DNA of 60,000 nt from Botryllus schlosseri (lineage: Eukaryota). Of this stretch, positions 17,371 through 55,500 are shown piece after piece; the first letter of the stretch is position 1, and every line of letters begins with the position of its first letter. Both the position numbers and the translations under genes were made by a program. The notes beneath the pieces are model-generated. The model made no database searches, was not told where the DNA came from, and was given only the letters and a program-made list of their open reading frames with translations. The stretch lies in the NCBI GenBank assembly GCA_051294905.1, contig CM119371.1:17052001-17112000 (forward strand), read 5' to 3'.

Positions 17371-17391
17371 GGTGGTGGTGGTGGTGGTGGT
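17371..17391 (+). repeat. (GGT)7 microsatellite
   Basis: Read directly from the sequence. Confidence 0.95.
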
Positions 17392-19173: not shown

Positions 19174-21539
19174 GCTATAGGTGATTCGTATATACCACCA
19201 CTATTGTTTTCAGTTACTATAGCCTTGTCCATAATCTAGCTATTATGGTGCTATCTTCTTAGCTTTTAGGTGGGGAGGTCGACCTTGTCGGAATCCTAAA
19301 GAGACCGTGTCGATGTAATTATTAAATACATAACTACATTATTGACTCATATCATCAGTATCGCATTGTTGTTAGTACACTGGTATAGAACAATACAAGC
19401 GAATTTCAAGCATTCCGTGTACATATATTACACCATTGCTATACATTGAGTAGTACATTTGTAGTACTTAGGGTATATGCATTACAGTTCTCAATTGATA
19501 AAATATTAGTATTTATTTTTAGAGTTAGCTAGATTCAGGTTTGCAATTAAAACTAGTATCATTTTTTGCAATTACAATACATGATACAAAATTATTGAAA
19601 TACACATATATAACTTTAGTAATCTACAAAAAAAAATTCAGCTCAATCAAGGCAATCTACCCAGCATTCACCTTCAAGGTGATATATTCCCCGAGTTAAC
19701 GCCTAAGCAAAACTCTGCACTAAGGGATTCGAACATGGGATATAAATGACGATCTTGCCTCAGTAATTGTATGATAAAAAAAAACATTTCTGGCCGAATG
19801 CGGCTCTTTTTTTGTAGGGATGTATATATATATATATATATATATTTTGCATTTTCGGTTAAATTCTTATCTTTTGCACTTCTCTAAAATGTCAATATTC
19901 TACATACAAGCATCAAATTTTTTTCATTCAGTTTTATATCCTTTTAATTTTCAGACGGATGCCACAAAATATGTACAACGAAGTCACTCCCCTTTTTTTT
20001 AATTATCGGAGGATGCCATGAAGCCATGCGATTCCCTAGTGTCGTGGCAGTAGAGAATGTGAGCATGGTTTTTCCTCAAACAAAATAATTTATTCCTCAA
20101 ATGGCGACTAGGCGCAGCGTCTGTTAATCAAAGCGCGCTGCCGCCAGTTGGGAGTGGGGGTAATAAAGGGCATTATGATTACACTCAATTCAGTATAATA
20201 ATAGTATCTCTACAAACAAAGAGGTTAGTGCGCAGTCGGACTCAATATAGGCCGATCACTACAAGTATCATGATGACAAACTGCTCGATACCCATTGCAT
20301 ACAATTAGAGTAGTACATAACTCATTATTAGCCAATCAATAATATCATATGTGCGCCATCAATCACATTTATAGATATGAAAGGTTAATTCATACGGGTG
20401 CTGACACAGAGAATATTTCGTCTCAAATAGGGAAGTCTCACATAAATTCAAACCTTTAGGCATGGTTGTTCGGCGTTGTTTCTGGTAACTAACGCCATAT
20501 CGCGTTGCTACAAATAGGTATCATTAACAGAATTGAAACACGAAAAGTAAGGCATATACCAACATATAGGTTTATTGTTCATCCTGGCTACGGGGCGTAT
20601 TTAGTATTATGGGGTGTTTTTGTATAGGATCTCCAATTTGCTAGATCAATCCAGCATAAATACTATTAGCACGTTTACTGACCAATTATTTTCTTCTAAC
20701 CTGCGCTAATACAGCATCGCTTACGCAAAGTGAGGGAACACCATAATAGTGTTACAAGCTGGCGGGTATTTCTAATAATAGGGAATCACACTGGTTTCAA
20801 AAATATATCACCATCTTAGCGATAATAGATCTTGAGTCATGACAACTCTTGCGCTTAGCCAAATAAGTACACTGTTAGAAAAATTTTGGTAAATTTACTC
20901 GTAATTGCGAGGCAGCAGTTTTACTTACCCTGGTAACGTTAAATACTAAAAATTAGTAATTTTTTTACTATAATTTTAGTAAATTTTCTGACTCAGGATA
21001 AGCAGCATTTCTACTCACTCTTGTAACCTTGATGCTAAAAATTAGTAACATTTTTACTCTTTCTAGTAAATTACTAGTAAAGCTAGCACTGAATTCACAG
21101 CCCTGTCTAGTGTCAATCAATGTATTGATTGACTTAATGCTATATGCATGGCGGTTTTCTAACACTTCGCGCCCTGGTAATACGCACAACTCCATGGAAA
21201 TTGAATCAAATGTTGCAGCATGAAAGAATTTATTTTCATGTTCTATTCCGTTTCCCGCAGGAGGTTGGTGAGTTTCATCGCCTTTTGATGAACTCTAAGT
21301 GTCTTTCTCTTTCTTGAACACTTCGCGCCTACGTCGGAAATCTCGGCGAAGACTCTGTAATATATGAAATATATCTTATAACATAACTGGGGGCTGGCCA
21401 TCAACAAGAGCTAATTTGCTTCAGACAAAACTATATTGCTGCATTAACAAAGTTCTGTAGCTTATTCACTATGGGCTACCAGTACCCCATATGTTAACAT
21501 TTTCGTGTTAAATTGTGATTGTTATAAGCAAGCAGAGCA

Positions 21540-21845
21540 CCACAATAGTTAATTGTTACTGTCAATGTGTTGCAGAGCTCTGATTGTTTAAAATAATGCA
21601 GATGTCAGATTTTTCAGAGCGATTTCAAGGCATTCTAGTGCCCATACCGCATTTTAATTTCTATTTTAGAAATCACCGTTACACTAGCTTTTCATTAGGA
21701 CCGGATTCAATAATATTTTGCGCCCTAGTTGCCAGCAGTGAGATCACCAATAAAGGTGCCTTTGCACTGCCCAGCAGTGAACGCAAGCAGCTGAGCCGAC
21801 CGAAGAAACATAATAAGTCATTGCCATTACGGGTTGACATTTGAT
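21540..21845 (-). mobile_element. Diverged fragment of the 8499-9072 foldback family, in the last accessory-gene intron
   Basis: Nucleotide similarity, reflected in ORF text HFNFYFRNHRYTSFSLGPDSII vs HYFNLYFRNRCHSSFRSGPDSII. Confidence 0.7.
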
Positions 21846-23429
21846 AGTCTAACTCTCACTCAGCTTACCTTTACATAAACTCCAACGTGGCTGTCAGTTC
21901 GCTCGGGTATTCCAGGTTGAAAACATAGAATGTGACGAACAGATACGCCAAAGCAACGTAGGAGTCCGTGGTGAATATCATTGATCTTTCGGCAGTTACC
22001 ACAAACTCCTTCAGATTGCAGTTCGATGAGCCTGAAAATAAACAAAAGTTGTAAAGTAGTCAGCGCTGCTATTCAACTAGATGTAGGGCTATACTGTCAT
22101 AAATTTATACTCGATTACGAGTAGAAGAAGCGAAAAATCCAACCACTCGAGTGTAGTGCTAGTAGGCACTTCAGAAGAGCAAGGCATCAATATAAGGTTA
22201 ATTATCTTCTCAGGATCCATGACTAACACAAAAATGCATTGTTAGTATGCAGCACATTTAACGCCATTGGCTAGGTTATGAAATAGAGACTGTGCAGACA
22301 ACCAGAGGCGCTGGTCAGTAATCAAGTATATCTATTATTTTGGCATACTCAAGTAGGTTTGCCAATGTTGCCTACTTGAGCTACTTATATTTTAGTGGTT
22401 GTGGCATTTGACTACTTCCACTTGTACGAAACAGTGATGGGCAGAACTACTGACTTTCAAGTGTTCAGATTTTGTAAAGTAGTTATGGGAAGTTTTTCAT
22501 TTTCACAACTACGGCATAACTATTGACAAGATAGTGAGTACCTATGACTGTCTTATCAGTGGTACCAACTTGCTCGCACTCCCTATCTCTACACCACGCT
22601 CACCAAGCACACCCGCGGAGGTAACAAATTTCCAGAGAAACCAAAAATCAGACGATTTTCACATTCATATCAAACCGATTTGTGCAATACAAAACCGGAC
22701 ATTTTTATAATCGAGACTTATGCCGCTATTCTGTGCATGTCACTTACTGACAATAGCAGGAGTGGGCAATCATTTTTACAATACAAACTGGTTTTAACAT
22801 GAAATGATTTAATTCAATTTGAGGCTCAAATCATTATGCCCGACCTAAGTCCATGAGATTCGCACGATGACTTTATACTTGCAATAAATTCAGTAACAGT
22901 CAGTTAGTCACCCATACTTTATGTACATAAATACTTACCGATTGTAATCAAGAAAGGGTGGTTCGGCGCATCTGCCATAAAATCTTGAGCAATGTCCTGA
23001 AAACAGATATGCATGTGTGAGCAATGATTCCAATATCATTTTTGAGTAGTGAGAATCTTTACCGGAGGACAGGCAACAACAACATTATTAAACAAAGTTA
23101 TTACCAACAATAGAACAGAACTACATTGGAAACATTCACAAAATCGGTTTTGGGGCTAATATAATACTAACCATTCTTTTGAACAATTGAGAGGCTGGTT
23201 CGTCAAAGGACGCACAGATCAGCTCGAGGATGCCAAGAGAGGAAGCATATGATTCTGATTTCGTTATCTCCGATATAGTTGAAAGTCTTGACACTGTTTT
23301 CTGTACTTTCTGCGTCGTCATATTTTTTAATGTCCTGTGAAGAGTACAATTAGCATTTATTTAAAATGAAAGCAAAGATAACAGGTATCTCGTTGATATA
23401 ATTGTCTTTGAAATATGTTAGTATAGTGT

Positions 23430-23807
23430 GTATAGGAGCGAAGTTATTGCAGTAGAAAAATTTGAATTTGAATAAAATAGTATATACGGTGACTAACTCT
23501 TTAATTATTTGTTATAAAATCAAGGAATAAGAAATTTTTCTACTGCAGTAACTTTGCTTCTAGTGGTTGGAATTGAGCCAAATTTAGTATGCATCATCTC
23601 TACTGACAGCCTAACAATTTTATGGGGTGGACAGAAAAATTTTGAAATTTTTATTTTTAATGATAATTTCAAAACTTTCTACAAGAATCACGCTTCTACC
23701 GGTTAGAATTGAGCCAAAAATGGTGAAGCATTTTTTTTAACCAACTCAACAATTTTATCAAGTAGCCAGTGAAATCTGAAGGAATTTCATTTTTTGAACA
23801 GCCCTAG
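23430..23807 (-). repeat. Fragment related to the internal module of MITEs A/B (~5433-5730)
   Basis: Shared CTGGCTACTTGATAAAATTGTT and AAATTTGG(T/C)TCAATTC motifs in a ~130-150-bp repeated unit. Confidence 0.65.
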
Positions 23808-24169
23808 TGTGTAGCCTATTTATGAGAGTACAAAAAAATCTTGCTTACTTTTGAATGCGAGGCCAGTTATTGTCCATCTTGCGAATCAAGAATTGCTTGG
23901 AATTTCCTGTACCAGTGAGAATACCATAATGTTGAAACATGAACTCAACTTCAAAGAGAAAGGGCCACATTTCTCAGATTGTTGATACTGCAGCAGGTTC
24001 ATTGATTGTCTTTCTTTGGAATGGATACGGTATGTAGTTTACATTAGCATTCCCACTTTCTCTCTGTCTGGAACTGCCTTTCTGCTTTCTTCGATAAGAC
24101 ATTTCTGGTCAGCGCTCAGTATGAGATGTACTGGTAAGTTCAGTATTTTCTTGCTCCATGATTGAGGCT

Positions 24170-24636
24170 TTAACCTGTTTTACAATCTCGTTACAATGGG
24201 AAGCTAACAGCTTACGCAGCTCAGCCATGATGTCTTGCACCGTAGTTGAAGAAATGAGGTTTTTGCACTACATCCTCATTGCAAACATAATGCTCGGGTT
24301 ATCATTCCTAAATTTCTCTTCCTGAGCGTTGTCGCTCATTACATCGGCAGCAAGCAACAGATCCTGGGCGATTGAACTCTGGCTTGTACTAGAATTATTG
24401 CAGAATTATGGTTAGTTGGCTGAATCACATTGTTCACATTGTTCCGAAACGGTATGATATCGGCTAACATGACTGGAAAATGACGATGTCACGTCATACC
24501 TCTTGGAACAGTGCAGATAAGGACACTTGACGAATAATCCGCTTCCAATATGGCTTTTCAGGTGACAAAAGATATCTGATGTTGAAGAAAGTTCCATACC
24601 TCAGATGACCACCGGGCATTTCAAATCTACTGCCAT
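24170..24636 (-). pseudogene. EnSpm transposase N-terminal zinc-finger region remnant
   Basis: HLKSH...VKCPYLHCSKRYDVTSSFSSHVSRYH (C2H2-type), then MFAMRM*CKNLISSTTVQDIMAEL; catalytic region missing. Confidence 0.7.
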
Positions 24637-37194: not shown

Positions 37195-38304
37195 GGTCCA
37201 CAGCATTTGCCGAAGCAGGCAATATTCAACAAAATATTGCGAATGCAACGATCAATGTTGTAGGCGGAAATCAGATCAATGAAACCGATGTCAAGACGGA
37301 GCATACACCTATAGATGGAAATTTAGGAATGGAAAATAGCAATAAAAGTATGTTTGACCAGTTTATTCTCTAAGACCGTGTCGATGGCAGTGATATGTGA
37401 AATGCAGCATCCAGTATTATTACAATGCTGTACAGCACTACTTTCGGTGACGTCTAATTTTTCTAGTATGGACACCACCTTCAGTGAACCGTATGTACTA
37501 ATCCTAAAAACTTTTCGAAAGGTACCGTATCATTGGCAGTGGGCGACAATGTGAAACAACAATTCGTCAACGCAAAGCTTAATGTGGTTGGAGGAAATCA
37601 GTATATCACGAATTACACAGTTTACCGAACGACAGGTGTGTGATATAAATAAACGATGATGTTGTGAGTAGGCCTACTCAATATACGGTGCGTTAGAGAA
37701 TAGATAAATTAAGATCCAACTACAAATTCAGTTATACATTTCTCAATGGCAGATCAAATGACACTATCATTAAACGATATTTTCACAGGAAGGATCGATC
37801 AACTGATTATCTAAATGCATCAAGATGCAATCCATCGTGATATATTGGAGCTTAACCAGTCAGCGTCTATCTATTTAGACCCGTCCAACAATGCAGAAGC
37901 TGGTCATTCCACTCGGCGTGTTGAGGACAGCCGGAAAAAAGTATATGGAATCGTTGATTCCCCGGTTATTGACCCGAAATGCAATTCTGTTAAGGTTAAG
38001 TGCAAAGAGAAAATCACAGGTATGAATTTCCAAATCAGTCGCTGTTGTGCAGTGTCATGCTAAGATTATTCCGGAGGATTTATTGTATTTATCGTATTAG
38101 TATTATATATACTTTATTCACAGTAAAACTGGTAAATTCACACATAATCTGGGGAGCACCCTGCCCCCAAAGGAAATGGCGCGATTGGGGTAAATTTTCA
38201 AAATTTCAATAATACAGTCAAAATGTTATTCCTATGCAATACACGTAGAAGTCAGATTACAGAATTGCAGTAGATGAAGAATAGGCAAGGGTTACAGAGT
38301 AGAG
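37195..38304 (+). pseudogene. Spliced gene remnant with tandem NVVGGNQ-motif exons (possibly NLR/immune-receptor related)
   Basis: Exons 37195-37347, 37522-37635, 37789-38019 and 38249 onward, all with AG/GT borders and phase-1 junctions that read through in frame; single stops at 37812 and in the 38249 exon. Family assignment is inference only. Confidence 0.6.
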
Positions 38305-38403
38305 CAGGGGTTCTCAACCCGTGGCCCGCGACATCTTTCATTATCAACGCATTTACTACTGACACAGTATTGTTGCATATTAATTTAGATACTTGGCTCT
38401 CTT

Positions 38404-38682
38404 GGTTGCCCGACATATGAGCATGCGACACAATGGAAAACGACAGTTCAGCATGGAACACATCAGCATGCGTCACTTCAGCATGTGACTGTATAACCCC
38501 AAAACTTACCCTAACCCGAAACATAGCCTAACCTAACCTAACCTAAAGCCTAACCCTAACCCAACCATAAATCCAACCCTAACCTACCCCTAACCCGTAA
38601 TTTAACCCACATGCTCATGTGTCGCATGCCGAAGTCTCGCATGCTGTAATGTCAATGTCGCATGCTCATATGTCCACGGACC
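38404..38682. mobile_element. MULE-like MITE with 9-bp TSD and (CCTAAC)n core
   Basis: GGTTGCCCGACATATGAGCATGCGACA / TGTCGCATGCTCATATGTCCACGGACC; exact TSD GGCTCTCTT (38395-38403, 38683-38691). Confidence 0.88.
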
Positions 38683-40184
38683 GGCTCTCTTATCGTACCG
38701 TCTCTGTGTCGTTGGAATACTCATTATTTGATGTGTTCTGGTTTCTCGATATCTGATCGAGTTAAGATTATTTTTTTAATCGGCCTTCCTCTGAACTCTG
38801 GTTTAAGAGAATTTCGCTGCGTAGTACATTTTTAGAGAGTGTTTTAGTCACTGCGAATGGTTTGAACAGAAACAAGAAAAAGTAACGGGAAATTAAACGG
38901 CAAAAACTGTGTTTGTAACACTGTGCGTGGAACAATGAATTTGCTTTCTCAGATACAGCTGAAAAACCGATTTGTCATATTTGTCGAAGAACAATTGTCG
39001 CGAAGAAGCATAAAATGATACAACGAAAATTTCTTCTGGAGTTATACATATAACCTGATCTTGAAAATCGTTGCTAGCTAGAAGTCAAGCCCGAGAATCT
39101 ATATTTCAAGGCATTGTTAAAATTGCCAACGACGTTACAGGCACATTGGAATAACGCTAAACCCAAGGAATTTGCTTGAGAAGGAGTAATTTCAATCAAA
39201 ATTTAAAATGCTGTGCGAATTTTCGCTGTTTCTTGCACTTAGCAGCAGGGACACCAACACATGACAGATTTCGAAGCTACAGTTGTCTGATGCAGCCGCG
39301 ACCAGAAGAGTAGCAGTAATGTCAGTCAATCTCCTATTGCACGTTGCCGCATAGACCACATTAGCCTAGCATTGGGCCACTCCACAAACTTCACAGATGC
39401 TGCATAGCAAATGATCTGGGTGCATTTTATCAGAGTGGACATATTTGCAGAGGAAATGCAGGCAAGGCAAACGTGGGGAGGGGACCAGCGAAAAGCATCA
39501 ACACTACAAAGCTGACTTCTGTAACTATTGCTGACCTCAAAACACCAGACTTTTTCTCTTATCAGGGAGAGCTCAAAGGGATAATGGCCTCTGTAACGAA
39601 AATGTTACGGTAATGCGCCGCTGGGAGATGCATTATTCTGAAAATAAAACAGCAACTGTTAACTTACGAACGGTGTCCATCATTGCTTTAGAATGCATTT
39701 ATTATTAACATTAATTGTGAAAATGGGACATTGTGGCGCTTATCACCTTATTTGCGCCACGGCAAAAAATTTCGTATTGCATGTCGCAAATCGTTTACCT
39801 AAAAAGAAAATTGCCTAAATCAACACACCAGGACGAACTCAACGAGAGGCGATAGAAGTTCCGGCAGGTTATCTATGGTGAACTCAACTTTCACGTTCAA
39901 GCAGAAATCAATCAAATATATGCTAGGTGCCAATCATATTTTGGGCATTCGAGGAGGAAGTGATCCACATTCTCGGGTACGACTTTAGAATGCATAAAAA
40001 GGTACTAAACGCCCGTCGCCCGTATAGGACTGGTAAATAGGCTACACAGTAGCCTAGGTTTAATAGTAGCCCGCAAATACATAGTAAAAATGTTCTGCGG
40101 CCCGCGGCGTCTTTTGCTGGTAAAATGCGAGTAGTGTTATGGGAATCGTTTATTGCCCGCCAATCCCAGAAGGCCACGTCGCCT

Positions 40185-40410
40185 TAATTGCCACACCTAC
40201 ATTGCCACATCATCCGCCCATTGCCGCACCTACGGGACGCCTATTGCCACATCATCCCCCCATTGCCGCACCTATAGCACACCTATTGCCACATCATCCA
40301 CCCATTGGTACATCACATACCACATTCATCTGTGTCACATCATCAAGCGTCACACCTATAGTGCCACATCATCCATTGCCACATCATCACCGCATTGATT
40401 GCCGCATCTA
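40185..40410 (+). repeat. Subterminal short tandem repeats (ATTGCCACATCATCC / ATTGCCGCACCTA units); mirrored at ~55109-55334
   Basis: Read directly; accounts for the repetitive LPHHPPIAAP ORF text. Confidence 0.85.
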
Positions 40411-40479
40411 TATTGTGCACAGCGCCGCATCAACCAGCGCGATGTCGATTGCTGCACCTATAACACTCATTACCACGCC

Positions 40480-40556
40480 AAAACTTTCCTTAGCTAGAAT
40501 CGAACCTGGCTTGGATGGGTATAATGTCACGTCGCTCACCACCGGGCTATTGAGCA
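40480..40556 (-). ncRNA. Putative tRNA-like Pol III transcription unit (left arm copy)
   Basis: Minus strand: A-box-like TAGCCCGGTGG, B-box-like GGTTCGATTCT at tRNA-like spacing, then TTTT. Confidence 0.45.
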
Positions 40557-41668
40557 AACTACCCGTATTGAGCTGTTTTGAGAATATAACCGCCGATTCT
40601 CTCTTAAATTCCGAGACAACACCTTTTTCGAGTTATTACACATAAATGTAAGACTATAACAGCTGTGTCATCATTAATTAGTCAATGATTTCGGGGAATT
40701 CTGCAAATGCAACTTAATAATACAGATATCGCAACCATAAAGGCCTACGATCACGCAAAGCTCATGCACCGCGCATATTGCCGAATACTATTCCAAGAAA
40801 TTGACGCGTGTAAATGCGGCACGAATATAGTTGCTTACGATTCCAAGAAGTCGGATCACATCGACAATATGAATTAGAACATTCTAAATATAGTTGCGAT
40901 TCCAAAAAGTCGGATCACATCGATAATGGGAATTAGAACATTCTAAATATAGTTGCGTTTCCAAGAAAACGCCGCGCTGGCGTTACGAATTAGAATGTTT
41001 AGTTCCGACGTAAAGCAATTCGCATTCTGAAAACTTCACATTTCTATTACAAGTATTGCCATGTGCGCAGGGACGCAGGTATCGCAGCTGAGGTAAGACC
41101 AATGTATTTTCGTGTCAATTTAAACTCAATTTAGCTATAATTTCTCGATGCAGCATTAGCTTACGCGAATTGTGAACGCAGATTGATTTACGTTGAGATT
41201 TCTCCAATAGCTAACGTAATGGTGAGTCCTGCGCGTGGCTATAATGTTAACCGGCAATATAGCCGAAGTCGCACAAATTCGAATGTATACGCAAGTTTTC
41301 TGTTAAAGGTAGACTATCTAGGCTCGCTTATTACTCGAATCTCGGTGTGGTTATAATAATTAGCTAGAGCAATAGTTTATCACCTATATTTAAATTCGCT
41401 CATTTCATTTCAGATCAAAACGCCGACATCGCATATACGCAATTTACGCTCGGAAAATTTCGCATTTATCACAACTATCGCGCTATGCACTTCAGCTAAT
41501 GACGCAGGTGATTTAGGCTACATTTCCGTATAGATTCGCACTAAATTTGGTTATAATTACGCGGGTATGCACTTCGGATTTGAGATGGATGTTAGTCTAT
41601 GAATTCTTGCTTTACTCGCGACCTAAAGTTGATAAATTGCGAGTTGTAGCAAGCATCTAACTACTGAG

Positions 41669-43027
41669 ATTATGCCGATTTTACAAGTCCATAAGCTGCT
41701 GCTTTTAGATATGTGATTTTAATAGCTAGTGCACTGATGCTTTTCCGATAGTGAATTAAATCTATAGCTAAACCTATGTCTATGCTATAATTTATCTCCT
41801 AAAACGCTATGCCACTGCGGGCTATAACATTTCAGATCACTGACATCACATCTGTTCCAGACGGTAGCGTTCAAGGCTACATCTTTGCGCAGCTATATCA
41901 AAGAAGTGTGCCGAGGTCGTATCAAAGTCGCTCAACTATAGCATAGATTGTGCCCGCAAAATGCAAATTCGTATTAAGTGTAGCCTGGCTAGCTTCGCTT
42001 ATTACTCAATGTTCAGTAACGCCGTATTAATGTAAGCTGCGTTTGCCGGGGCTATAGGAACGAAGTCACTCAATACAAATTCCTGGCTCTTGCTAGATGA
42101 TGATAATATGAAGCCACTACTCCATAAGCTGCTGCTTTTAGATATGTGATTTGCATTATGCCGATTTTACAAGTCCATAAGCTGCTGCTTTTAGATATGT
42201 GATTTTAATAGTTAGTGCACTGATGCTTTTCCGATAGTGAATTAAATCTATAGCTAAACCTATGTCTATACTATAATTTATCTCCTAAAACGCTATGCCA
42301 CTGCGGGCTATAACATTTCAGATCACTGACATCACATCTGTTCCAGACGCTTGCGTTCAAGGCTACATCTTTGCGCAGCTATATCAAAGAAGTGTGCCGA
42401 GGTCGTATCAAAGTCGCTCAACTATAGCATAGATTGTACCAGCAAAATGCAAATTCGTATTAAGGGTAGCCTGCCTAGTCCCGCTTATTACTCGATGTAT
42501 AGTAACGCCGTAATGTAAGTTGCGTTTGCTGTAGGAGCGAAGTCACTCAATACAAATTCCTGTTTCTTGCTAGATGATGATAATATGAAGCCACTAGCCC
42601 ATAAGCTGCTGCTTTTAGATATGTGATTTGCATTATGCCGATTTTACAAGTCCATAAGCTGCTGCTTTTAGATATGTGATTTTAATAGCTAGTGCACTGA
42701 TGCTTTTCCGACAGTGAATTAAATCTATAGCTAAACCTATGTCTATGCTATAATTTATCTCCTAAAACGGTATGCCACTGCGGGCTATAACATTTCAGAT
42801 CACTGACATCACATTTGTCCCAGACGCTAGCGTTCAAGGCTACATCTCTGCGCAGCTATATCAAAGAAGTGTGCCGAGGTCGTATCAAAGTCGCTCAACT
42901 ATAGCATAGATTGTAGCAGCAAAATGCAAATTCGTATTAAGGGTAGCCTGCCTAGTCCCGCTTATTACTCGATGTTCAGTACCGCCGTAATGTAAGCTGC
43001 GTTTGCTGTAGGAGCGAAGTCACTCAA
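41669..43027 (+). repeat. ~480-bp tandem repeat, ~3 copies; mirrored at ~52492-53850
   Basis: Unit start ATTATGCCGATTTTACAAGTCC at 41669, 42155 and 42632. Confidence 0.92.
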
Positions 43028-43574
43028 TTTTTAGATTCAAATATAGCGTATCGAGTACTTTTTTCTCAACTGTAATAAAAACTTTTAGACTCTGGATTTT
43101 GTGTAGTAGGCTATATACTAATTTACAATACCGCATTTGTAATTCGTGCAAGTACAGGAATATCATAGTTCTTGTAACAAAGTTGTCTGCGCACAATATA
43201 TGTTAATCATAAGTCCTACACATTCATGGTTTCGTCCAAGTTTGAGTTTTAGAAAATATTATACCGACATCGCGGCATCTTTTAAAAACAAAACCATGAT
43301 CAATGGTTGAGAGACCATTTTTGCTATTTTTCATTGACATAAGTCATTCTGGAACGCGAAAACGCATTGTACGATATAGATGAAAATTAAGCAAATCCTA
43401 GGATCCTCATTTTCAAAGTAGCTTAGATCTCGAAATAAGCTTTGACTCGCTATTCTCCTCAAACCATGGAATTATCACGAGTATCAGCACCTTCGATCAC
43501 TGAAGAAAAGGATGAAATTATATCCGAAGCATATTCCTTGACCAGGAATTTTATCATGTACGAACTCGACGGCT

Positions 43575-46370
43575 CATGCTAATATGTGACTCCTCACCTT
43601 GAAACTTGGTACGTAGTTGTAGGAATTGTGATAATGCAGCATACCAAATTTCCTCACGCATTTCATAATGGAACAACTTTAAAACTAACGCGGTTCTACA
43701 TCGACTTTTTGCGTACATCTGTTTTGCGTGGGGGCGTATAGCACGTACCTATACATAGTCAACTTTAACAACGGAATTACCATGCTTAACATTGAATCCC
43801 AACTCGAAACTTGATACGTAGTTGTAGAACATTATGGCAATGCACCATGCTAAATTTCATCACACATCTAATGATGGAACACCTTTAAAACTAACGCAGT
43901 CGAATACCGACTTTTACGCATATCTGTTTTGCGTGAACATAGCATATACCTATACATAGTCAATTTTAATAGCAGAATTACCGTGTTAAACATTGAATTC
44001 CCACCTTGAAAGTTGGTACGCGGTTATAGGAGATTATAACAATGCACCATACCAAATCCCATCACACATTTCATGATGGAACAACTTTAAAACTAACGCG
44101 GCTCTACATCGACTTTTTGCGTACATCTGTTTTGTGGGAGCGTATAGCACGTAGCCTACCCATACATAGCCAACTTTAATAACGGAATTACCATGCTTAA
44201 CATTGAATCCCAACTCGAAACTTGATACGTAGTTATAGGACATTATGGCAATTCACCATGCTAAATTTCATCACACATCTAATGATGGAACACCTTTGAA
44301 ACTATCGCAGTCGAATACCAACTTTTACGCATATCTGTTTTTCGTGAACATAGCATATACCCATACATAGTCAATTTTAATAACAGAATTAGCATGCTAA
44401 ACATTAAATTCTCACCTTGAACGTTGATACGCGGTTATAGGACATAATAACAATGCACCATACCAAATTTTGTCAGACATTTCATGATGTAACACCTTTA
44501 AAACCAACGCAGTTCTATACAGACTTTTGGCTAAATCTGTTTTTCCGTAGCGTAGCACGTACCTATACATAGTCAACTTTAATAACGGATTTAGCATGTT
44601 AATAATCGACTTAGTTTAAATAAAATACGGAATATAAACTAATCGAAAAATTCGGTAACCAATTTCGCGTAGGCTATGCATGCATACAAATGAGGAAAGT
44701 TACATCAACGCGTGTTAAAGTAGCTGTATCGAGTTATCGAATGATTTTTCCTTACATCAAAACAACTAGAATGTATAACTAAATTGAAAAACGTATCTAA
44801 ATGAGCTCCAGGGCATTGTGATTATGCTGCATACCAAATTTCATCACACATTTCATGATGGAACAACTTTAAAACTAACGCAGTTCTATAGCAACTTTTG
44901 CCTAAATCTGTTTTCGGTAGCGTGTACATATACATAGTCAGATTTATTAACAGAATTATCATGCTAATATGTGACTCCTCACCTTGAAACTTGGTACGTA
45001 GTTGTAGGACATTGTGATTATGCAGCATACCAAATTTCTTCACGCATTTCATAATGGAACAACTTTAAAACTAACGCGGTTCTACATCGACTTTTTGCGT
45101 ACATCTGTTTTGCGAGGGGGCGTATAGCACGTACCTATACATAGTCAACTTTAACAACGGAATTACCATGCTTAACATTGAATCCCAACTCGAAACTTGA
45201 TACGTAGTTGTAGGACATTATGGCAATGCACCATGCTAAATTTCATCACACATCTAATGATGGAACACCTTTAAAACTAACGCAGTCGAATACCGACTTT
45301 TACGCATATCTGTTTTGCGTGAACATAGCATATACCTATACATAGTCAATTTTAATAGCAGAATTACCGTGTTAAACATTGAATTCCCACCTTGAAAGTT
45401 GGTACGCGGTTATAGGAGATTATAACAATGCACCATACCAAATCCCATCACACATTTCATGATGGAACAACTTTAAAACTAACGCGGCTCTACATCGACT
45501 TTTTGCGTACATCTGTTTTGCGGGAGCGCATAGCACGTAGCCTACCCATACATAACCAAATTTAATAACGGAATTACCATGCTTAACATTGAATCCCAAC
45601 TCGAAACTTGATACGTAGTTATAGGACATTATGGCAATTCACCATGCTAAAGTTCATCACACATCTAATGATGGAACACCTTTGAAACTATCGCAGTCGA
45701 ATACCAACTTTTACGCATATCTGTTTTTCGTGAACATAGCATATACCCATACATAGTCAATTTTAATAACAGAATTAGCATGCTAAACATTAAATTCTCA
45801 CCTTGAACGTTGATACGCGGTTGTAGGACATAATAACAATGCACCATACCAAATTTCGTCAGACATTTCATGATGTAACACCTTTAAAACCAACGCAGTT
45901 CTATACAGACTTTTGGCTAAATCTGTTTTTCCGTAGCGTAGCACGTACCTATACATAGTCAACTTTAATAACGGATTTAGCATGTTAATAATCGACTCCC
46001 CACCTTGAAACTCGGTACGCAGTTGTAAGACATTATGACAATGCACCATGTCAAATTTTGTTACGCATTTCTTGATTGAACAACTTTAAAACTAACGCAG
46101 TTCCATACCGACTTTTGCGAGTGCGTAGCACGTACCTATATGCATACTCAACTTTCATAACGGAATTACCGAGCTAAACATTGAATGCGCAACTTGAAGA
46201 TTGGTTCACAGGTGTAGGGCAGTATGACAATGGAACACATCAAATTTCATCACACATTTCATGATGGAACACCTTTAAAACTAACGCAGTTCTATACCAA
46301 CCTCGCGTGAATCTGTTTGCGGGAGCGTAGCACGTACCTATGCGTGATCAACTTTAGTGATGGAATTACA
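43575..46370 (+). repeat. ~185-190-bp satellite-like array with a 1386-bp higher-order duplication; mirrored at ~49150-51945
   Basis: Recurring ACCAAATTTCATCACACATTTCATGATGGAACA.CTTTAAAACTAACGC; ORFs 44034 and 45420 are offset by 1386 bp; unique interruption at ~44610-44810. Confidence 0.92.
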
Positions 46371-46443
46371 TATGTAATTAAGTTTCAACACTTTTACAAT
46401 GATTCGTCTTGCTTCCTATAACATCCCACTCGAGAAAATGCGT

Positions 46444-47730
46444 CGTAGGATATAGATGAAACTAGCACCACTCATCAAGACCGCTGAAAACAGTACATTT
46501 CAACATTTAGTAGCAGTAAATTTCTAGTAAAGTACAAGACGTGATGATTTCCGAGTGAGCTAAAAAGTAAGTATTGCAGGTATAGTTTACCTGAAAACCG
46601 AATACTCTGAAATAGAAGTAGATGCAGTGTAAATAGTTAATCACTTGATTAAGTTTAGTGCAAGCAGATAAAACCTATACTTGAGTAGTACAAAATGCAC
46701 GAGTACTTCGCTATCGCCTCCCTCCACGTAATAAGTGTCTACGGTTTAAGACTGCTTTTACCGATACTCGTCCGTTTCAGTTTTAGATAGAATTCGGAAA
46801 CCAAATAATTTCATAGACATAAGCTAATTTAATGAATTTACTCGAATGTACTATGCTGCGCTGATAAGATTAATTATAATATACTTATCATGTTACAGCG
46901 ATTTTTCTAGCGTAGAAAATCTTTAAAATGTAGTAAGCAGGCCAAATGAAGATATTCGTTGAGCTGAATAAACATAAAAAATACTCTAGACTACTTTATC
47001 GGTACTTTACAGTTACAGTTTTAGATAAAATTTGTCCCTTTCACCCATAATTACAACTCCTCGCTATCTAAACATGTTTAGAATATATTATTTGCGATGA
47101 TACGAACCCGTGAAGTACTCAAGTTGCTTTTCGTAGGATATAGATGAAACTGACAACACTCACCAAGACCAGTGATCCACTGAAAAAAGTACATTGTAGC
47201 AGTAAAGTCCTACTAAAGTACAAGAAGTAATGATTTCCCAGTTAGTTAAAAAGTAAGTATTCAGGTATAGTTTGGTCGAAAAAGCGAAAAACTCTGAAAT
47301 AGAAGTAGATGCAGTGGAAATAGGTAATCACTTCATTAAGTATAGCGCAAGCAGGCCAAACCTATACTTAAGTACTGCAAATGTACAAGTACTTCGCTAT
47401 GTTCTCCCTCCACGTAAAAAGTGACTAGGTTTTAGAGTACTTTATCGGTACTCGACAGTTTCAGTGTTAGATGAAATTTGGTAAGACTTTAAATTTCAAA
47501 GTAGTTTGAGCTTACGTTTGTATCACCTTGACAAGTAACATTATCAGACATGAAAATGATACTATCACCGAATATAGAAGTTAACACGCGTCAGTGTGCT
47601 TCGGAATTCACGAGAAATTGCTTACTAAGAGAAGTATATTGTTGTATACACAATAGTGGAGAGAATATTTAAAATGTAGTTAGCAGGCCGATGGGTATTC
47701 GTTTAGTTGTACAGGCATAAAAAACATTCC
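46444..47730 (+). repeat. Diverged ~690-bp tandem duplication next to the palindrome centre; mirrored in the right arm
   Basis: CGTAGGATATAGATGAAACT at ~46444 and ~47132; CTCTGAAATAGAAGTAGATGCAGTG occurs in both. Confidence 0.85.
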
Positions 47731-47737
47731 CGCGCGC

Positions 47738-47781
47738 GTCTTAGTATTAGGTGGTAGGGTTAGGAAGTGTTTTGTTTAAGA
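47738..47781. other. 44-bp asymmetric central spacer of the palindrome
   Basis: GTCTTAGTATTAGGTGGTAGGGTTAGGAAGTGTTTTGTTTAAGA, between CCCGCGCGC and GCGCGCGGG. Confidence 0.95.
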
Positions 47782-50700
47782 GCGCGCGGGAATGTTTTTT
47801 ATGCCTGTACAACTAAACGAATACCCATCGGCCTGCTAACTACATTTTAAATATTCTCTCCACTATTGTGTATACAACAATATACTTCTCTTAGTAAGCA
47901 ATTTCTCGTGAATTCCGAAGCACATTGACGCGTGTTAACTTCTATATTCGGTGATAGTATCATTTTCATGTCCGATAATGTTACTTGTCAAGGTGATACA
48001 AACGTAAGCTCAAACTACTTTGAAATTTAAAGTCTTACCAAATTTTATCTAACACTGAAACTGTCGAGTACCGATAAAGTACTCTAAAACCTAGTCACTT
48101 TTTACGTGGAGGGAGAACATAGCGAAGTACTTGTACATTTGCAGTACTTAAGTATAGGTTTGGCCTGCTTGCGCTATACTTAATGAAGTGATTACCTATT
48201 TACACTGCATCTACTTCTATTTCAGAGTTTTTCGCTTTTTCGACCAAACTATACCTGAATACTTACTTTTTAACTAACTGGGAAATCATTACTTCTTGTA
48301 CTTTAGTAGGACTTTACTGCTACAATGTACTTTTTTCAGTGGATCACTGGTCTTGGTGAGTGTTGTCAGTTTCATCTATATCCTACGAAAAGCAACTTGA
48401 GTACTTCACGGGTTCGTATCATCGCAAATAATATATTCTAAACATGTTTAGATAGCGAGGAGTTGTAATTATGGGTGAAAGGGACAAATTTTATCTAAAA
48501 CTGTAACTGTAAAGTACCGATAAAGTAGTCTAGAGTATTTTTTATGTTTATTCAGCTCAACGAATATCTTCATTTGGCCTGCTTACTACATTTTAAAGAT
48601 TTTCTACGCTAGAAAAATCGCTGTAACATGATAAGTATATTATAATTAATCTTATCAGCGCAGCATAGTACATTCGAGTAAATTCATTAAATTAGCTTAT
48701 GTTTATGAAATTATTTGGTTTCCGAATTCTATCTAAAACTGAAACGGACGAGTATCGGTAAAAGCAGTCTTAAACCGTAGACACTTATTACGTGGAGGGA
48801 GGCGATAGCGAAGTACTCGTGCATTTTGTACTACTCAAGTATAGGTTTTATCTGCTTGCACTAAACTTAATCAAGTGATTAACTATTTACACTGCATCTA
48901 CTTCTATTTCAGAGTATTCGGTTTTCAGGTAAACTATACCTGCAATACTTACTTTTTAGCTCACTCGGAAATCATCACGTCTTGTACTTTACTAGAAATT
49001 TACTGCTACTAAATGTTGAAATGTACTGTTTTCAGCGGTCTTGATGAGTGGTGCTAGTTTCATCTATATCCTACGACGCATTTTCTCGAGTGGGATGTTA
49101 TAGGAAGCAAGACGAATCATTGTAAAAGTGTTGAAACTTAATTACATATGTAATTCCATCACTAAAGTTGATCACGCATAGGTACGTGCTACGCTCCCGC
49201 AAACAGATTCACGCGAGGTTGGTATAGAACTGCGTTAGTTTTAAAGGTGTTCCATCATGAAATGTGTGATGAAATTTGATGTGTTCCATTGTCATACTGC
49301 CCTACACCTGTGAACCAATCTTCAAGTTGCGCATTCAATGTTTAGCTCGGTAATTCCGTTATGAAAGTTGAGTATGCATATAGGTACGTGCTACGCACTC
49401 GCAAAAGTCGGTATGGAACTGCGTTAGTTTTAAAGTTGTTCAATCAAGAAATGCGTAACAAAATTTGACATGGTGCATTGTCATAATGTCTTACAACTGC
49501 GTACCGAGTTTCAAGGTGGGGAGTCGATTATTAACATGCTAAATCCGTTATTAAAGTTGACTATGTATAGGTACGTGCTACGCTACGGAAAAACAGATTT
49601 AGCCAAAAGTCTGTATAGAACTGCGTTGGTTTTAAAGGTGTTACATCATGAAATGTCTGACGAAATTTGGTATGGTGCATTGTTATTATGTCCTACAACC
49701 GCGTATCAACGTTCAAGGTGAGAATTTAATGTTTAGCATGCTAATTCTGTTATTAAAATTGACTATGTATGGGTATATGCTATGTTCACGAAAAACAGAT
49801 ATGCGTAAAAGTTGGTATTCGACTGCGATAGTTTCAAAGGTGTTCCATCATTAGATGTGTGATGAACTTTAGCATGGTGAATTGCCATAATGTCCTATAA
49901 CTACGTATCAAGTTTCGAGTTGGGATTCAATGTTAAGCATGGTAATTCCGTTATTAAATTTGGTTATGTATGGGTAGGCTACGTGCTATGCGCTCCCGCA
50001 AAACAGATGTACGCAAAAAGTCGATGTAGAGCCGCGTTAGTTTTAAAGTTGTTCCATCATGAAATGTGTGATGGGATTTGGTATGGTGCATTGTTATAAT
50101 CTCCTATAACCGCGTACCAACTTTCAAGGTGGGAATTCAATGTTTAACACGGTAATTCTGCTATTAAAATTGACTATGTATAGGTATATGCTATGTTCAC
50201 GCAAAACAGATATGCGTAAAAGTCGGTATTCGACTGCGTTAGTTTTAAAGGTGTTCCATCATTAGATGTGTGATGAAATTTAGCATGGTGCATTGCCATA
50301 ATGTCCTACAACTACGTATCAAGTTTCGAGTTGGGATTCAATGTTAAGCATGGTAATTCCGTTGTTAAAGTTGACTATGTATAGGTACGTGCTATACGCC
50401 CCCACGCAAAACAGATGTACGCAAAAAGTCGATGTAGAACCGCGTTAGTTTTAAAGTTGTTCCATTATGAAATGCGTGAAGAAATTTGGTATGCTGCATA
50501 ATCACAATGTCCTACAACTACGTACCAAGTTTCAAGGTGAGGAGTCACATATTAGCATGATAATTCTGTTAATAAATCTGACTATGTATATGTACACGCT
50601 ACCGAAAACAGATTTAGGCAAAAGTTGCTATAGAACTGCGTTAGTTTTAAAGTTGTTCCATCATGAAATGTGTGATGAAATTTGGTATGCAGCATAATCA

Positions 50701-53700
50701 CAATGCCCTGGAGCTCATTTAGATACGTTTTTCAATTTAGTTATACATTCTAGTTGTTTTGATGTAAGGAAAAATCATTCGATAACTCGATACAGCTACT
50801 TTAACACGCGTTGATGTAACTTTCCTCATTTGTATGCATGCATAGCCTACGCGAAATTGGTTACCGAATTTTTCGATTAGTTTATATTCCGTATTTTATT
50901 TAAACTAAGTCGATTATTAACATGCTAAATCCGTTATTAAAGTTGACTATGTATAGGTACGTGCTACGCTACGGAAAAACAGATTTAGCCAAAAGTCTGT
51001 ATAGAACTGCGTTGGTTTTAAAGGTGTTACATCATGAAATGTCTGACGAAATTTGGTATGGTGCATTGCTATTATGTCCTATAACCGCGTATCAACGTTC
51101 AAGGTGAGAATTTAATGTTTAGCATGCTAATTCTGTTATTAAAATTGACTATGTATGGGTATATGCTATGTTCACGAAAAACAGATATGCGTAAAAGTTG
51201 GTATTCGACTGCGATAGTTTCAAAGGTGTTCCATCATTAGATGTGTGATGAAATTTAGCATGGTGAATTGCCATAATGTCCTATAACTACGTATCAAGTT
51301 TCGAGTTGAGATTCAATGTTAAGCATGGTAATTCCGTTATTAAAGTTGGCTATGTATGGGTAGGCTACGTGCTATACGCTCCCACAAAACAGATGTACGC
51401 AAAAAGTCGATGTAGAGCCGCGTTAGTTTTAAAGTTGTTCCATCATGAAATGTGTGATGGGATTTGGTATGGTGCATTGTTATAATCTCCTATAACCGCG
51501 TACCAACTTTCAAGGTGGAAATTCAATGTTTAACACGGTAATTCTGCTATTAAAATTGACTATGTATAGGTATATGCTATGTTCACGCAAAACAGATATG
51601 CGTAAAAGTCGGTATTCGACTGCGTTAGTTTTAAAGGTGTTCCATCATTAGATGTGTGATGAAATTTAGCATGGTGCATTGCCATAATGTTCTACAACTA
51701 CGTATCAAGTTTCGAGTTGGGATTCAATGTTAAGCATGGTAATTCCGTTGTTAAAGTTGACTATGTATAGGTACGTGCTATACGCCCCCACGCAAAACAG
51801 ATGTACGCAAAAAGTCGATGTAGAACCGCGTTAGTTTTAAAGTTGTTCCATTATGAAATGCGTGAGGAAATTTGGTATGCTGCATTATCACAATTCCTAC
51901 AACTACGTACCAAGTTTCAAGGTGAGGAGTCACATATTAGCATGAGCCGTCGAGTTCGTACATGATAAAATTCCTGGTCAAGGAATATGCTTCGGATATA
52001 ATTTCATCCTTTTCTTCAGTGATCGAAGGTGCTGATACTCGTGATAATTCCATGGTTTGAGGAGAATAGCGAGTCAAAGCTTATTTCGAGATCTAAGCTA
52101 CTTTGAAAATGAGGATCCTAGGATTTGCTTAATTTTCATCTATATCGTACAATGCGTTTTCGCGTTCCAGAATGACTTATGTCAATGAAAAATAGCAAAA
52201 ATGGTCTCTCAACCATTGATCATGGTTTTGTTTTTAAAAGATGCCGCGATGTCGGTATAATATTTTCTAAAACTCAAACTTGGACGAAACCATGAATGTG
52301 TAGGACTTATGATTAACATATATTGTGCGCAGACAACTTTGTTACAAGAACTATGATATTCCTGTACTTGCACGAATTACAAATGCGGTATTGTAAATTA
52401 GTATATAGCCTACTACACAAAATCCAGAGTCTAAAAGTTTTTATTACAGTTGAGAAAAAAGTATTCGATACGCTATATTTGAATCTAAAAATTGAGTGAC
52501 TTCGCTCCTACAGCAAACGCAGCTTACATTACGGCGGTACTGAACATCGAGTAATAAGCGGGACTAGGCAGGCTACCCTTAATACGAATTTGCATTTTGC
52601 TGCTACAATCTATGCTATAGTTGAGCGACTTTGATACGACCTCGGCACACTTCTTTGATATAGCTGCGCAGAGATGTAGCCTTGAACGCAAGCGTCTGGG
52701 ACAAATGTGATGTCAGTGATCTGAAATGTTATAGCCCGCAGTGGCATACCGTTTTAGGAGATAAATTATAGCATAGACATAGGTTTATCTATAGATTTAA
52801 TTCACTGTCGGAAAAGCATCAGTGCACTAGCTATTAAAATCACATATCTAAAAGCAGCAGCTTATGGACTTGTAAAATCGGCATAATGCAAATCACATAT
52901 CTAAAAGCAGCAGCTTATGGGCTAGTGGCTTCATATTATCATCATCTAGCAAGAAACAGGAATTTGTATTGAGTGACTTCGCTCCTACAGCAAACGCAAC
53001 TTACATTACGGCGTTACTATACATCGAGTAATAAGCGGGACTAGGCAGGCTACCCTTAATACGAATTTGCATTTTGCTGGTACAATCTATGCTATAGTTG
53101 AGCGACTTTGATACGACCTCGGCACACTTCTTTGATATAGCTGCGCAAAGATGTAGCCTTGAACGCAAGCGTCTGGAACAGATGTGATGTCAGTGATCTG
53201 AAATGTTATAGCCCGCAGTGGCATAGCGTTTTAGGAGATAAATTATAGTATAGACATAGGTTTAGCTATAGATTTAATTCACTATCGGAAAAGCATCAGT
53301 GCACTAACTATTAAAATCACATATCTAAAAGCAGCAGCTTATGGACTTGTAAAATCGGCATAATGCAAATCACATATCTAAAAGCAGCAGCTTATGGAGT
53401 AGTGGCTTCATATTATCATCATCTAGCAAGAGCCAGGAATTTGTATTGAGTGACTTCGTTCCTATAGCCCCGGCAAACGCAGCTTACATTAATACGGCGT
53501 TACTGAACATTGAGTAATAAGCGAAGCTAGCCAGGCTACACTTAATACGAATTTGCATTTTGCGGGCACAATCTATGCTATAGTTGAGCGACTTTGATAC
53601 GACCTCGGCACACTTCTTTGATATAGCTGCGCAAAGATGTAGCCTTGAACGCTACCGTCTGGAACAGATGTGATGTCAGTGATCTGAAATGTTATAGCCC

Positions 53701-54962
53701 GCAGTGGCATAGCGTTTTAGGAGATAAATTATAGCATAGACATAGGTTTAGCTATAGATTTAATTCACTATCGGAAAAGCATCAGTGCACTAGCTATTAA
53801 AATCACATATCTAAAAGCAGCAGCTTATGGACTTGTAAAATCGGCATAATCTCAGTAGTTAGATGCTTGCTACAACTCGCAATTTATCAACTTTAGGTCG
53901 CGAGTAAAGCAAGAATTCATAGACTAACATCCATCTCAAATCCGAAGTGCATACCCGCGTAATTATAACCAAATTTAGTGCGAATCTATACGGAAATGTA
54001 GCCTAAATCACCTGCGTCATTAGCTGAAGTGCATAGCGCGATAGTTGTGATAAATGCGAAATTTTCCGAGCGTAAATTGCGTATATGCGATGTCGGCGTT
54101 TTGATCTGAAATGAAATGAGCGAATTTAAATATAGGTGATAAACTATTGCTCTAGCTAATTATTATAACCACACCGAGATTCGAGTAATAAGCGAGCCTA
54201 GATAGTCTACCTTTAACAGAAAACTTGCGTATACATTCGAATTTGTGCGACTTCGGCTATATTGCCGGTTAACATTATAGCCACGCGCAGGACTCACCAT
54301 TACGTTAGCTATTGGAGAAATCTCAACGTAAATCAATCTGCGTTCACAATTCGCGTAAGCTAATGCTGCATCGAGAAATTATAGCTAAATTGAGTTTAAA
54401 TTGACACGAAAATACATTGGTCTTACCTCAGCTGCGATGCCTGCGTCCCTGCGCACATGGCAATACTTGTAATAGAAATGTGAAGTTTTCAGAATGCGAA
54501 TTGCTTTACGTCGGAACTAAACATTCTAATTCGTAACGCCAGCGCGGCGTTTTCTTGGAAACGCAACTATATTTAGAATGTTCTAATTCCCATTATCGAT
54601 GTGATCCGACTTTTTGGAATCGCAACTATATTTAGAATGTTCTAATTCATATTGTCGATGTGATCCGACTTCTTGGAATCGTAAGCAACTATATTCGTGC
54701 CGCATTTACACGCGTCAATTTCTTGGAATAGTATTCGGCAATATGCGCGGTGCATGAGCTTTGCGTGATCGTAGGCCTTTATGGTTGCGATATCTGTATT
54801 ATTAAGTTGCATTTGCAGAATTCCCCGAAATCATTGACTAATTAATGATGACACAGCTGTTATAGTCTTACATTTATGTGTAATAACTCGAAAAAGGTGT
54901 TGTCTCGGAATTTAAGAGAGAATCGGCGGTTATATTCTCAAAACAGCTCAATACGGGTAGTT

Positions 54963-55039
54963 TGCTCAATAGCCCGGTGGTGAGCGACGTGACATTATAC
55001 CCATCCAAGCCAGGTTCGATTCTAGCTAAGGTAAGTTTT
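54963..55039 (+). ncRNA. Putative tRNA-like Pol III transcription unit (right arm copy)
   Basis: TAGCCCGGTGG at 54970, GGTTCGATTCT at 55013, TTTT at 55036-55039. Confidence 0.45.
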
Positions 55040-55500
55040 GGCGTGGTAATGAGTGTTATAGGTGCAGCAATCGACATCGCGCTGGTTGATGCGGCGCTGT
55101 GCACAATATAGATGCGGCAATCAATGCGGAGATGATGTGGCAATGGATGATGTGGCACTATAGGTGTGACGCTTGATGATGTGACACAGATGAATGTGGT
55201 ATGTGATGTACCAATGGGTGGATGATGTGGCAATAGGTGTGCTATAGGTGCGGCAATGGGGGGATGATGTGGCAATAGGCGTCCCGTAGGTGCGGCAATG
55301 GGCGGATGATGTGGCAATGTAGGTGTGGCAATTAAGGCGACGTGGCCTTCTGGGATTGGCGGGCAATAAACGATTCCCATAACACTACTAATGCGGCCCG
55401 TTATACACGGGAAGTTGAGAACCCCTGGAGTAGAGGTAGAGATGATTGAAAATGAAGAATCGAAATTACAGAAATTATGCTGTGATTCACAAGTGTAATT

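Follow-up and report, generated by a model that had tools for sequence, protein, structure and literature searches.

A whole-length palindromic member of a Polinton/Maverick family in the genome of Botryllus schlosseri

The palindrome and its insertion site

The window analysed here is a stretch of 60,000 nt of Botryllus schlosseri contig CM119371.1 (GCA_051294905.1; 17,052,001-17,112,000, forward) in an assembly of 495.5 Mb and 219 contigs, and coordinates given without a contig name are positions in this stretch. An inverted-repeat search resolved positions 40130-55389 into two inverted arms of 7,608 nt each, the left at 40130-47737 (plus) and the right at 47782-55389 (minus), around a non-palindromic spacer of 44 nt (47738-47781, plus), which is bordered by the self-complementary GCGCGC and would be the loop of a hairpin. 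Ungapped comparison of the arms gave 16 mismatches in 7,608 positions and no indel; the palindromic structure is far beyond chance, and a chance origin was rejected. The element begins with AGTAGTGTTATG and ends with CATAACACTACT. Its outermost AGTAGT (40130-40135, plus), a doubled trinucleotide starting with AG, is mirrored by ACTACT at 55384-55389, and the 6-bp target-site duplication AATGCG lies directly outside the left (40124-40129) and the right end (55390-55395). All of this agrees with a preliminary description of this DNA, which had reported 7,608-bp arms with no net indel and scattered substitutions (those at 40389/55130, 40487/55032 and 47594/47925 are among the 16), the 44-bp spacer, the AGTAGT...ACTACT ends and the AATGCG duplication. 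The palindrome is no lone oddity: it is one of about 100 palindromes with the same 44-nt spacer.

The element interrupts a hAT-like repeat, the left part of which (38305-40129) carries the terminal inverted repeat (TIR) CAGGGGTTCTC and the right end of which (55396-55427) closes with GAGAACCCCTG, both being flanked by the 8-bp duplication GAGTAGAG (38297-38304 and 55428-55435). The 8-bp duplication on both sides and the short TIRs of the CAGGGG type, which we take to be typical of hAT, assign the repeat to this superfamily, and since no transposase frame was seen in it, it is a non-autonomous hAT-like copy. Two uninterrupted copies of the same repeat elsewhere (L072 and L073) run unbroken from the left flank to the right flank and carry a single AATGCG, the aligned flanks overlapping by exactly 6 bp. 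This implies that the whole palindrome was inserted as one unit, generating the 6-bp duplication; with these empty sites and the AATGCG around the entire structure, the earlier claims of a clean insertion into a hAT element whose halves rejoin, and of a palindrome that moved as one unit, are borne out.

Followed from the end to the centre, an arm opens with a terminal block that contains 19/42-bp repeats; a 477-bp repeat comes next, then the 202/411-bp arrays and lastly a unique inner part. The terminal block includes a conserved 30-nt motif, CCAATCCCAGAAGGCCACGTCGCCTTAATT (40160-40189, plus; mirror 55330-55359), and a subterminal array (40188-40408, plus; mirror 55111-55331) with eight TTGCCRCAYC copies set within the 19/42-bp tandem repeats. 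TTGCCRCAYC is present eight times at each end of the element and nowhere else in the window, and its array is a candidate for a set of protein-binding sites. The 477-bp tandem repeat (2.8 copies; 41669-43028, plus; mirror 52491-53850) shares 87-93% identity with repeats in the right part of two gene-bearing relatives, the C11 and C1b copies. A remnant of a Bcl-2-like gene (43442-43579, plus; mirror 51940-52077, minus strand) is followed directly by the 202/411-bp tandem-repeat arrays (43575-46369, plus; mirror 49150-51944), which stand in place of the remainder of that gene, take up about 2.8 kb per arm and have related arrays in three other palindromes, the C9, C4 and C6 copies. The unique inner arm adjoining the centre (46430-47737, plus) is conserved, as judged by comparison with the C4, C9 and other centres.

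No stop-free frame of at least 100 aa lies wholly within either arm according to an open reading frame scan, the sole longer frame (173 aa, 40124-40645) beginning in the flank, and no family was matched by an Rfam scan of the whole window. A tblastn search of the element with seven proteins of the candidate helpers described below found only the Bcl-2-like remnant (83% identity over 46 aa, E 9.6e-20), which corresponds to residues 2-46 of the stop-to-stop Bcl-2-like frame, i.e. about 45 codons. The polymerase and the integrase that an autonomous Polinton encodes are thus both missing from the element. The preliminary description had called it gene-less, which holds for frames of 100 aa or more wholly inside the arms of the window copy, but not for its relatives, which carry a Bcl-2-like gene per arm, nor strictly for the window copy itself, given the codons that it keeps.

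A family of palindromes with Polinton ends

When up to 3 mismatches are allowed, the genome contains the 44-nt spacer 104 times (control, 0), and in 53 cases the match is exact. At least 44 matches exist for the initial 401 nt of the element (40 of 652 candidates scored). For the 30-nt terminal motif there are 323 matches with up to 2 mismatches (160 forward, 163 reverse; reversed control, 0), a number that suggests about 160 elements. The window copy and five others were read as complete elements (n = 6), most other family members being known by coordinates only. The 6-bp duplications of the six all differ (AATGCG, CATTTG, CGCGAA, CGCACG, TACGGG and CATGGA), and all six have AGTAGT...ACTACT ends, except that one end of the C4 copy reads AGTACT. 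Polintons/Mavericks are characterised by target duplications of 5-6 bp and by 5'-AG...CT-3' TIRs with a short terminal tandem repeat, and both features (the duplication being 6 bp) were found in 6/6 elements; AG...CT ends with a short terminal repeat are reportedly the defining Polinton pattern (Kapitonov and Jurka 2006). The preliminary description had called the element Polinton/Maverick-like and had proposed a check for other copies with different 6-bp duplications and for gene-bearing elements with the same ends. Both kinds exist, the latter with integrase, ATPase, a DJR-like capsid protein and the start of a pPolB polymerase, and together they support the placement of the window element as a non-autonomous member of a Polinton/Maverick family.

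Whole-length palindromy is a trait of this family, and this is new. Of the other five elements read completely, C9, C4 and C6 are likewise palindromes over their whole length, 14.5-16.0 kb in size, with arms 99.1-99.9% identical. Positions 6302-7652 of the window arm, including the spacer, share 94% identity with the C4 copy, and positions 5445-7652 share 98.5% with the C9 copy. The comparison was extended to 29 centre loci from other places, of which 27 are approximately 95-99% identical to the window element over the whole fetched stretch and two are truncated, with the same identity over the retained part; 26 centre loci as well as the window locus are palindromic for about 1.5 kb on each side, while 3 are truncated or rearranged. 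Full-text searches on palindromic, foldback or non-autonomous Polintons yielded no report of whole-length palindromic Polinton derivatives, and no confirmation of the palindromic fish Polintons mentioned in the preliminary description; Repbase and Dfam lay outside the scope of this search and may hold a prior entry.

Both ends of a palindrome have the same origin. Positions 768-1228 of the window arm match only DNA that is specific to the right end of gene-bearing copies, and the C1b copy, which has a TIR of only about 520 bp, shares 98.8% identity at its right end with positions 1-1394 of the C9 arm. Since the TIR of gene-bearing elements measures 520-700 bp and arm DNA beyond it matches the right end only, both palindrome ends derive from one helper end. 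This is the arrangement of a snap-back or symmetric genome, with both ends taken from one parental terminus and joined head-to-head around a short loop.

Element sizes come from the first 100 of the 323 motif matches, which yielded 39 pairs of termini; these pairs were annotated with the listed spacers, capsid matches and 27-mer matches (see below) on contigs C1-C6. Single-spacer palindromes measure 15.08-15.64 kb in 6/8 cases and capsid-bearing elements 17.0-19.1 kb in 8/10, which may hint at a packaging constraint. Three elements with family ends (C3:4207939-4228871, C5:21052768-21074921 and C5:24797138-24819717) contain two spacers in the same orientation, 5.8-6.9 kb apart, in a total of 20.9-22.6 kb, and four more same-orientation spacer pairs, 7.4-10.4 kb apart, occur on C1, C5, C11 and C13; the two-spacer elements look as though their central palindrome had been duplicated in direct orientation.

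Most relatives, to judge from the matches in the genome, carry a Bcl-2-like gene in each arm, which is likewise new. A Bcl-2-like frame is present in each arm of the C9 copy (Pfam E 9.3e-15) and of the C4 copy (Pfam E 1.1e-22), and the protein shows NWGR as its BH1 and GGW as its BH2 motif; a word-based homologue search with it gave no match at E 0.001, its identity being assigned by Pfam only. In the genome, 150 matches to this protein were scored among 2,485 candidates, all with E ≤1.8e-75 and 142 without a stop, and 230 occurrences were counted for an invariant 27-mer of the gene (control, 0). Of the 150 matches, 108 lie in convergent pairs with less than 20 kb between the partners, 54 pairs in all. 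The 44-nt spacer lies between the two genes in 13 of these pairs, within 7 nt of the midpoint in nine; the pairs without it fall into other spacing classes, including one of about 3.25 kb, which implies that palindromes with other centres exist too. The two convergent genes are presumably an anti-apoptotic cargo, and homologues of Bcl2 and IAP are named as adintovirus accessory genes in a passage of PMC8502044.

Gene-bearing relatives as candidate helpers

The remaining two of the five other complete elements, C11 and C1b, carry genes, and both have the same ends as the palindromes. Pfam recognised a BIR (IAP) domain, Bcl-2, a Pox_A32-type packaging ATPase (E 8.6e-09, above the cut-off) and an rve integrase with a chromodomain, the C1b integrase reaching E 2.2e-14 and 54 bits against a cut-off of 32.6. 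A 425-aa protein is the capsid candidate: it weakly matches the double-jelly-roll family DJR-like_dom, with E 0.0095 and 15.6 bits, below the Pfam cut-off of 27, and the Atlas clusters nearest to it carry that same Pfam family (PF21738) in 24-30% of their members. A 155-aa frame at the position of the protease matched no family in Pfam or PHROGs, and eight unassigned frames of the gene-bearing element had no match in PHROGs. The capsid protein has 36 genome matches with at least 94% identity, in an open frame without stops and full-length in 35 (99 of 274 candidates scored); the approximately 100 spacer-bearing copies outnumber these gene-bearing relatives. Further capsid lineages are about 82%, 70% and 35% identical, making at least four lineages in the genome, most with open frames.

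In most gene-bearing copies the similarity to C11 and C1b is confined to the region from the ATPase to the capsid gene, and the left part is about 3 kb longer. A variant left part, in which BIR/IAP and Bcl-2-like genes replace the polymerase, is found at C1:8322176-8348964 and C11:8194283-8208996, and the BIR/IAP and Bcl-2-like left part occurs in 5 of 28 places scored. Having integrase, ATPase and capsid genes without a polymerase, this variant should itself depend on a helper for replication. In a 17.6-kb copy (C1:31166731-31184377) with the exact terminal motif on both sides, which represents the 17-18-kb form and of which 2.5 kb of the left part was read, two frames follow a 1,294-aa PF03175 polymerase in order, one matching residues 5-306 (E 2e-52) and the other residues 311-431 (E 1e-28), and the second piece includes the FDFES exonuclease motif. 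Pfam applied to a 136-aa polymerase fragment alone returned weak zinc-finger noise only. A pPolB protein query of the genome found 36 near-full to full-length matches with frames of 1,212-1,306 aa, 30 of them without stops; several adjoin capsid genes of the 35%-identity lineage, and as far as can be told these polymerases belong to a second Polinton family. The genome, on the evidence of these frames, hosts several apparently intact Polinton families.

Other inverted structures were encountered in the same genome. A second, unrelated palindrome is nested within the C1b copy (element coordinates 11340-24602), with two 6.1-kb arms that are 99.5% identical and a centre of about 1 kb. Elsewhere in the window, a foldback-like structure of about 2.3 kb (5586-7906) is composed of nested inverted repeats with arms of 355 nt (92%), 184 nt (88%) and 287 nt (94%, 29 nt apart), and another inverted pair at 8485-9086 has 245-nt arms 112 nt apart.

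Concerted arms and their possible causes

The two arms of each copy evolve in concert, and this too is new. The inner ~1,450 nt of both arms were aligned for 32 centres (30 fetched loci, C9 and C4), using the 1,448 of 2,236 columns with an occupancy of at least 90%; per-copy counts refer to the 29 intact centres left after three truncated ones were dropped, and as several loci are the two centres of one element, the independent insertions are fewer. The arms of a copy differ at 0-12 positions (0-0.83%), 12 of the 29 copies showing no difference at all, whereas the median distance between copies is 1.24% (all 32 centres) and two sublineages are about 5% apart. At 47 sites where the minor state is present in at least four arms, the state is the same in both arms in 1,362 of 1,363 cells. 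Singletons make up 54 of the 62 arm differences, the nearest neighbour of an arm is its own partner in 54 of 64 cases (all 32 copies), and left/right differences shared between loci occur only in the two centres of one element. Tandem arrays, which are prone to indels and vary strongly from copy to copy, make up the arms, yet the two arms of the window copy show no indel against each other. At the five arm differences nearest the centre of the window copy, the derived base, determined against 56 other arms, is G in every case, four times on the left and once on the right, a sample too small to interpret.

The pattern of these differences shows that the arms were, to judge from the aligned copies, identical at or shortly before insertion. 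Later changes behave otherwise. A SINE-like (short interspersed element) insertion of about 307 bp, with a tRNA-like head and a 13-bp duplication, is present only in the left arm of the C9 copy (L031:5023-5330), where it disrupts the Bcl-2-like frame, and the older C6 copy has asymmetric arms, 99.1% identical. This implies that changes arising after insertion are not visibly equalised in place.

We consider it probable that the window element, a non-autonomous palindrome over its whole length, derives from a resident Polinton/Maverick family with many intact-looking copies, that it depends on helpers, and that its arms are equalised by way of a fold-back strand. Helper elements would supply polymerase and integrase in trans, and would thereby replicate and integrate the palindrome. 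The AGT-AGT terminal repeat would fit a slide-back step of protein-primed initiation, which is known from adenovirus and phi29. When a palindrome is replicated by strand displacement, the strand set free could pair with itself over its full length, giving a hairpin of about 7.6 kb; this hairpin would restore a duplex origin at once, an advantage over the short terminal panhandle available to the helper, and it would expose differences between the arms as mismatches open to repair, so that the arms would be equal before each integration and would diverge only afterwards. We propose that full-length self-pairing together with mismatch repair explains both the concerted arms and the success of the family. 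The founder was probably a one-ended, truncated replication product that folded back at the GCGCGC beside the spacer and was copied by self-priming. The window copy, which has lost nearly all of the Bcl-2-like gene, would be a passive rider. To our knowledge Polinton replication has never been observed, and the protein-primed model with a self-annealed strand is drawn by analogy with adenovirus and phages. For adenovirus and PRD1, a section of PMC11886824 treats the panhandle as a model for displaced strands and for the restoration of terminal homology, for which direct evidence is lacking.

Several observations weigh against this proposal or parts of it. For the assembly of a 15-kb near-perfect palindrome the support is internal: mismatches private to single copies, target-site duplications, and recurrence at about 100 loci. 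The polymerase of the family was read for its first ~430 residues, i.e. the first third, only, and the frame changes between the two pieces, by a frameshift or a short intron. A genome scan with Pfam PF03175 gave 0 matches, with none in its controls either, which we judge to be a false negative since the protein query finds 36 pPolB matches. The first 400-800 nt of the window copy are only 87-92% identical to the gene-bearing ends scored, so that the compatibility of this copy with present-day helpers stays at the level of inference. The three two-spacer elements of 20.9-22.6 kb speak against a strict packaging length and weaken the idea of a head-full size limit. Pairwise ratios of non-synonymous to synonymous substitution (dN/dS) in the Bcl-2-like gene are 0.31-0.82 (five sequences with poorly aligned tails), which suggests moderate constraint at best. 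Finally, the concerted arms could equally come from arm-to-arm gene conversion in the chromosome, to which the one-armed SINE is a single counter-example.

This last point amounts to a rival explanation, according to which the element is the same and equally helper-dependent, but the palindrome is copied as an ordinary duplex and its arms are kept alike by chromosomal gene conversion or repair between them. Gene conversion in large chromosomal palindromes is established, and near-identical arms within copies set against 1-5% between copies would suit any homogenising process. The distribution of the differences fits it less well: they form a continuum from 0 to 0.83% and are singletons in 54 of 62 cases, as expected from accumulation after insertion, and no left/right difference is common to independent insertions, the shared ones being confined to two centres of one element. 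The one-armed insertion of the C9 copy was neither copied nor removed although its arms are otherwise about 99.85% identical, and the older C6 copy has become asymmetric at 99.1%. On balance we hold homogenisation in the chromosome to be unlikely, though it is the rival to be taken most seriously. Far less probable is that the host keeps the palindromes as sources of hairpin RNA (small interfering or Piwi-interacting RNA) against Polintons. Read-through of arms that hold the helper-derived end and Bcl-2-like sequence in inverted order would give long double-stranded RNA matching the helper ends and the Bcl-2-like gene, and such a side effect could coexist with helper-dependent replication; but about 100 dispersed copies with their own 6-bp duplications, and Bcl-2-like frames that are open in 142 of 150 cases, look like the amplification of a parasite and not like a host locus. 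That the palindrome might be an assembly artefact, or a local inverted duplication at the site instead of a mobile unit, is hardly credible. False palindromes can arise in long-read assembly, but AATGCG borders the whole structure, an empty site exists elsewhere, all six complete elements have distinct 6-bp duplications of their own, the spacer is found at 104 places, and private substitutions between the arms would not be expected of an artefact made from a single read; on these grounds the explanation was rejected.

The fold-back reading can be carried further, to a possibility that we advance with reserve. An endogenous polintovirus that is still active may have the palindromes as its true satellites: every round of replication would regenerate them from one fold-back strand, helper capsids would take them up at 85-95% of the helper's length, and they would integrate anew, many of them with a doubled viral Bcl-2-like gene that would keep the infected cell alive. 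The preliminary description had put forward both a satellite or defective viral genome and a snap-back hairpin, and these likewise stand as proposals.

Polintons are thought to be both transposons and viruses. With the autonomous ones (Polintons/Mavericks, polintoviruses and adintoviruses) the window element shares the 6-bp duplication, the 5'-AG inverted ends with a short terminal repeat, and ends that are common to elements encoding pPolB, rve integrase, an A32-like ATPase and a DJR-like capsid protein; it differs in having no genes for replication, integration or capsid, and in that its inverted repeat is the entire element and not a few hundred bp. An Anolis Polinton, according to an excerpt of PMC3014272, has a 6-bp duplication, a TIR of 584 bp and a length of 17,487 bp. 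In Pieris and Euchloe butterflies, a portion of bioRxiv 10.1101/2025.02.07.637071 gives Polinton TIRs of about 2 kb that duplicate the hexon and adenain genes. In these Polintons as in the present family the TIR has spread inward and doubled genes, but in the butterflies it makes up a minority of an autonomous element, and here it makes up all of a non-autonomous one, with 44 nt unpaired.

Among protein-primed viruses, snap-back or inverted-dimer defective genomes offer a close likeness, and the 'symmetric recombinant' SYREC of adenovirus 12 is said to be symmetric and of near-genome length (Deuring et al. 1981). As in SYREC, both ends of the palindromes come from one parental terminus, the molecule is symmetric and its length is near that of the helper; helper dependence, which is inferred here, is stated for SYREC in a part of PMC2396429. 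SYREC, however, was isolated in the laboratory, is episomal and contains host DNA. The palindromes sit in the chromosomes between target duplications and pass through the germ line; they number about 100 copies, form sublineages, and often possess a viral-type Bcl-2-like gene.

Foldback elements such as Drosophila FB and Galileo also have long inverted arms, made largely of tandem repeats, and little or no coding capacity. FB and Galileo are transposase-driven cut-and-paste families with 7-9-bp target duplications and FB- or P-type ends; the 6-bp duplications in 6/6 elements and the ends held in common with integrase-bearing Polintons place the palindromes outside this group. Large chromosomal palindromes, for instance those of primate sex chromosomes, resemble them in having arms that are more than 99% identical and concerted. 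The primate palindromes, however, are single-locus host structures with arm-to-arm gene conversion, while those described here are mobile, multi-copy and bounded by target duplications.

Arms that change jointly between lineages and diverge privately after insertion are the pattern expected if a fold-back strand is obligatory in replication. The family shows that non-autonomous Polintons can outnumber their helpers and can carry an apoptosis regulator in double dose. Should the satellite reading be true, Polintons would have their first described satellite or defective-interfering lineage, and the intrastrand intermediate of protein-primed replication, a panhandle or hairpin, would gain evidence from nature on the scale of a whole genome. 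For B. schlosseri itself, a genome seeded with about 100 near-perfect 15-kb palindromes, structures normally held to be fragile, has in them candidate hotspots of rearrangement.

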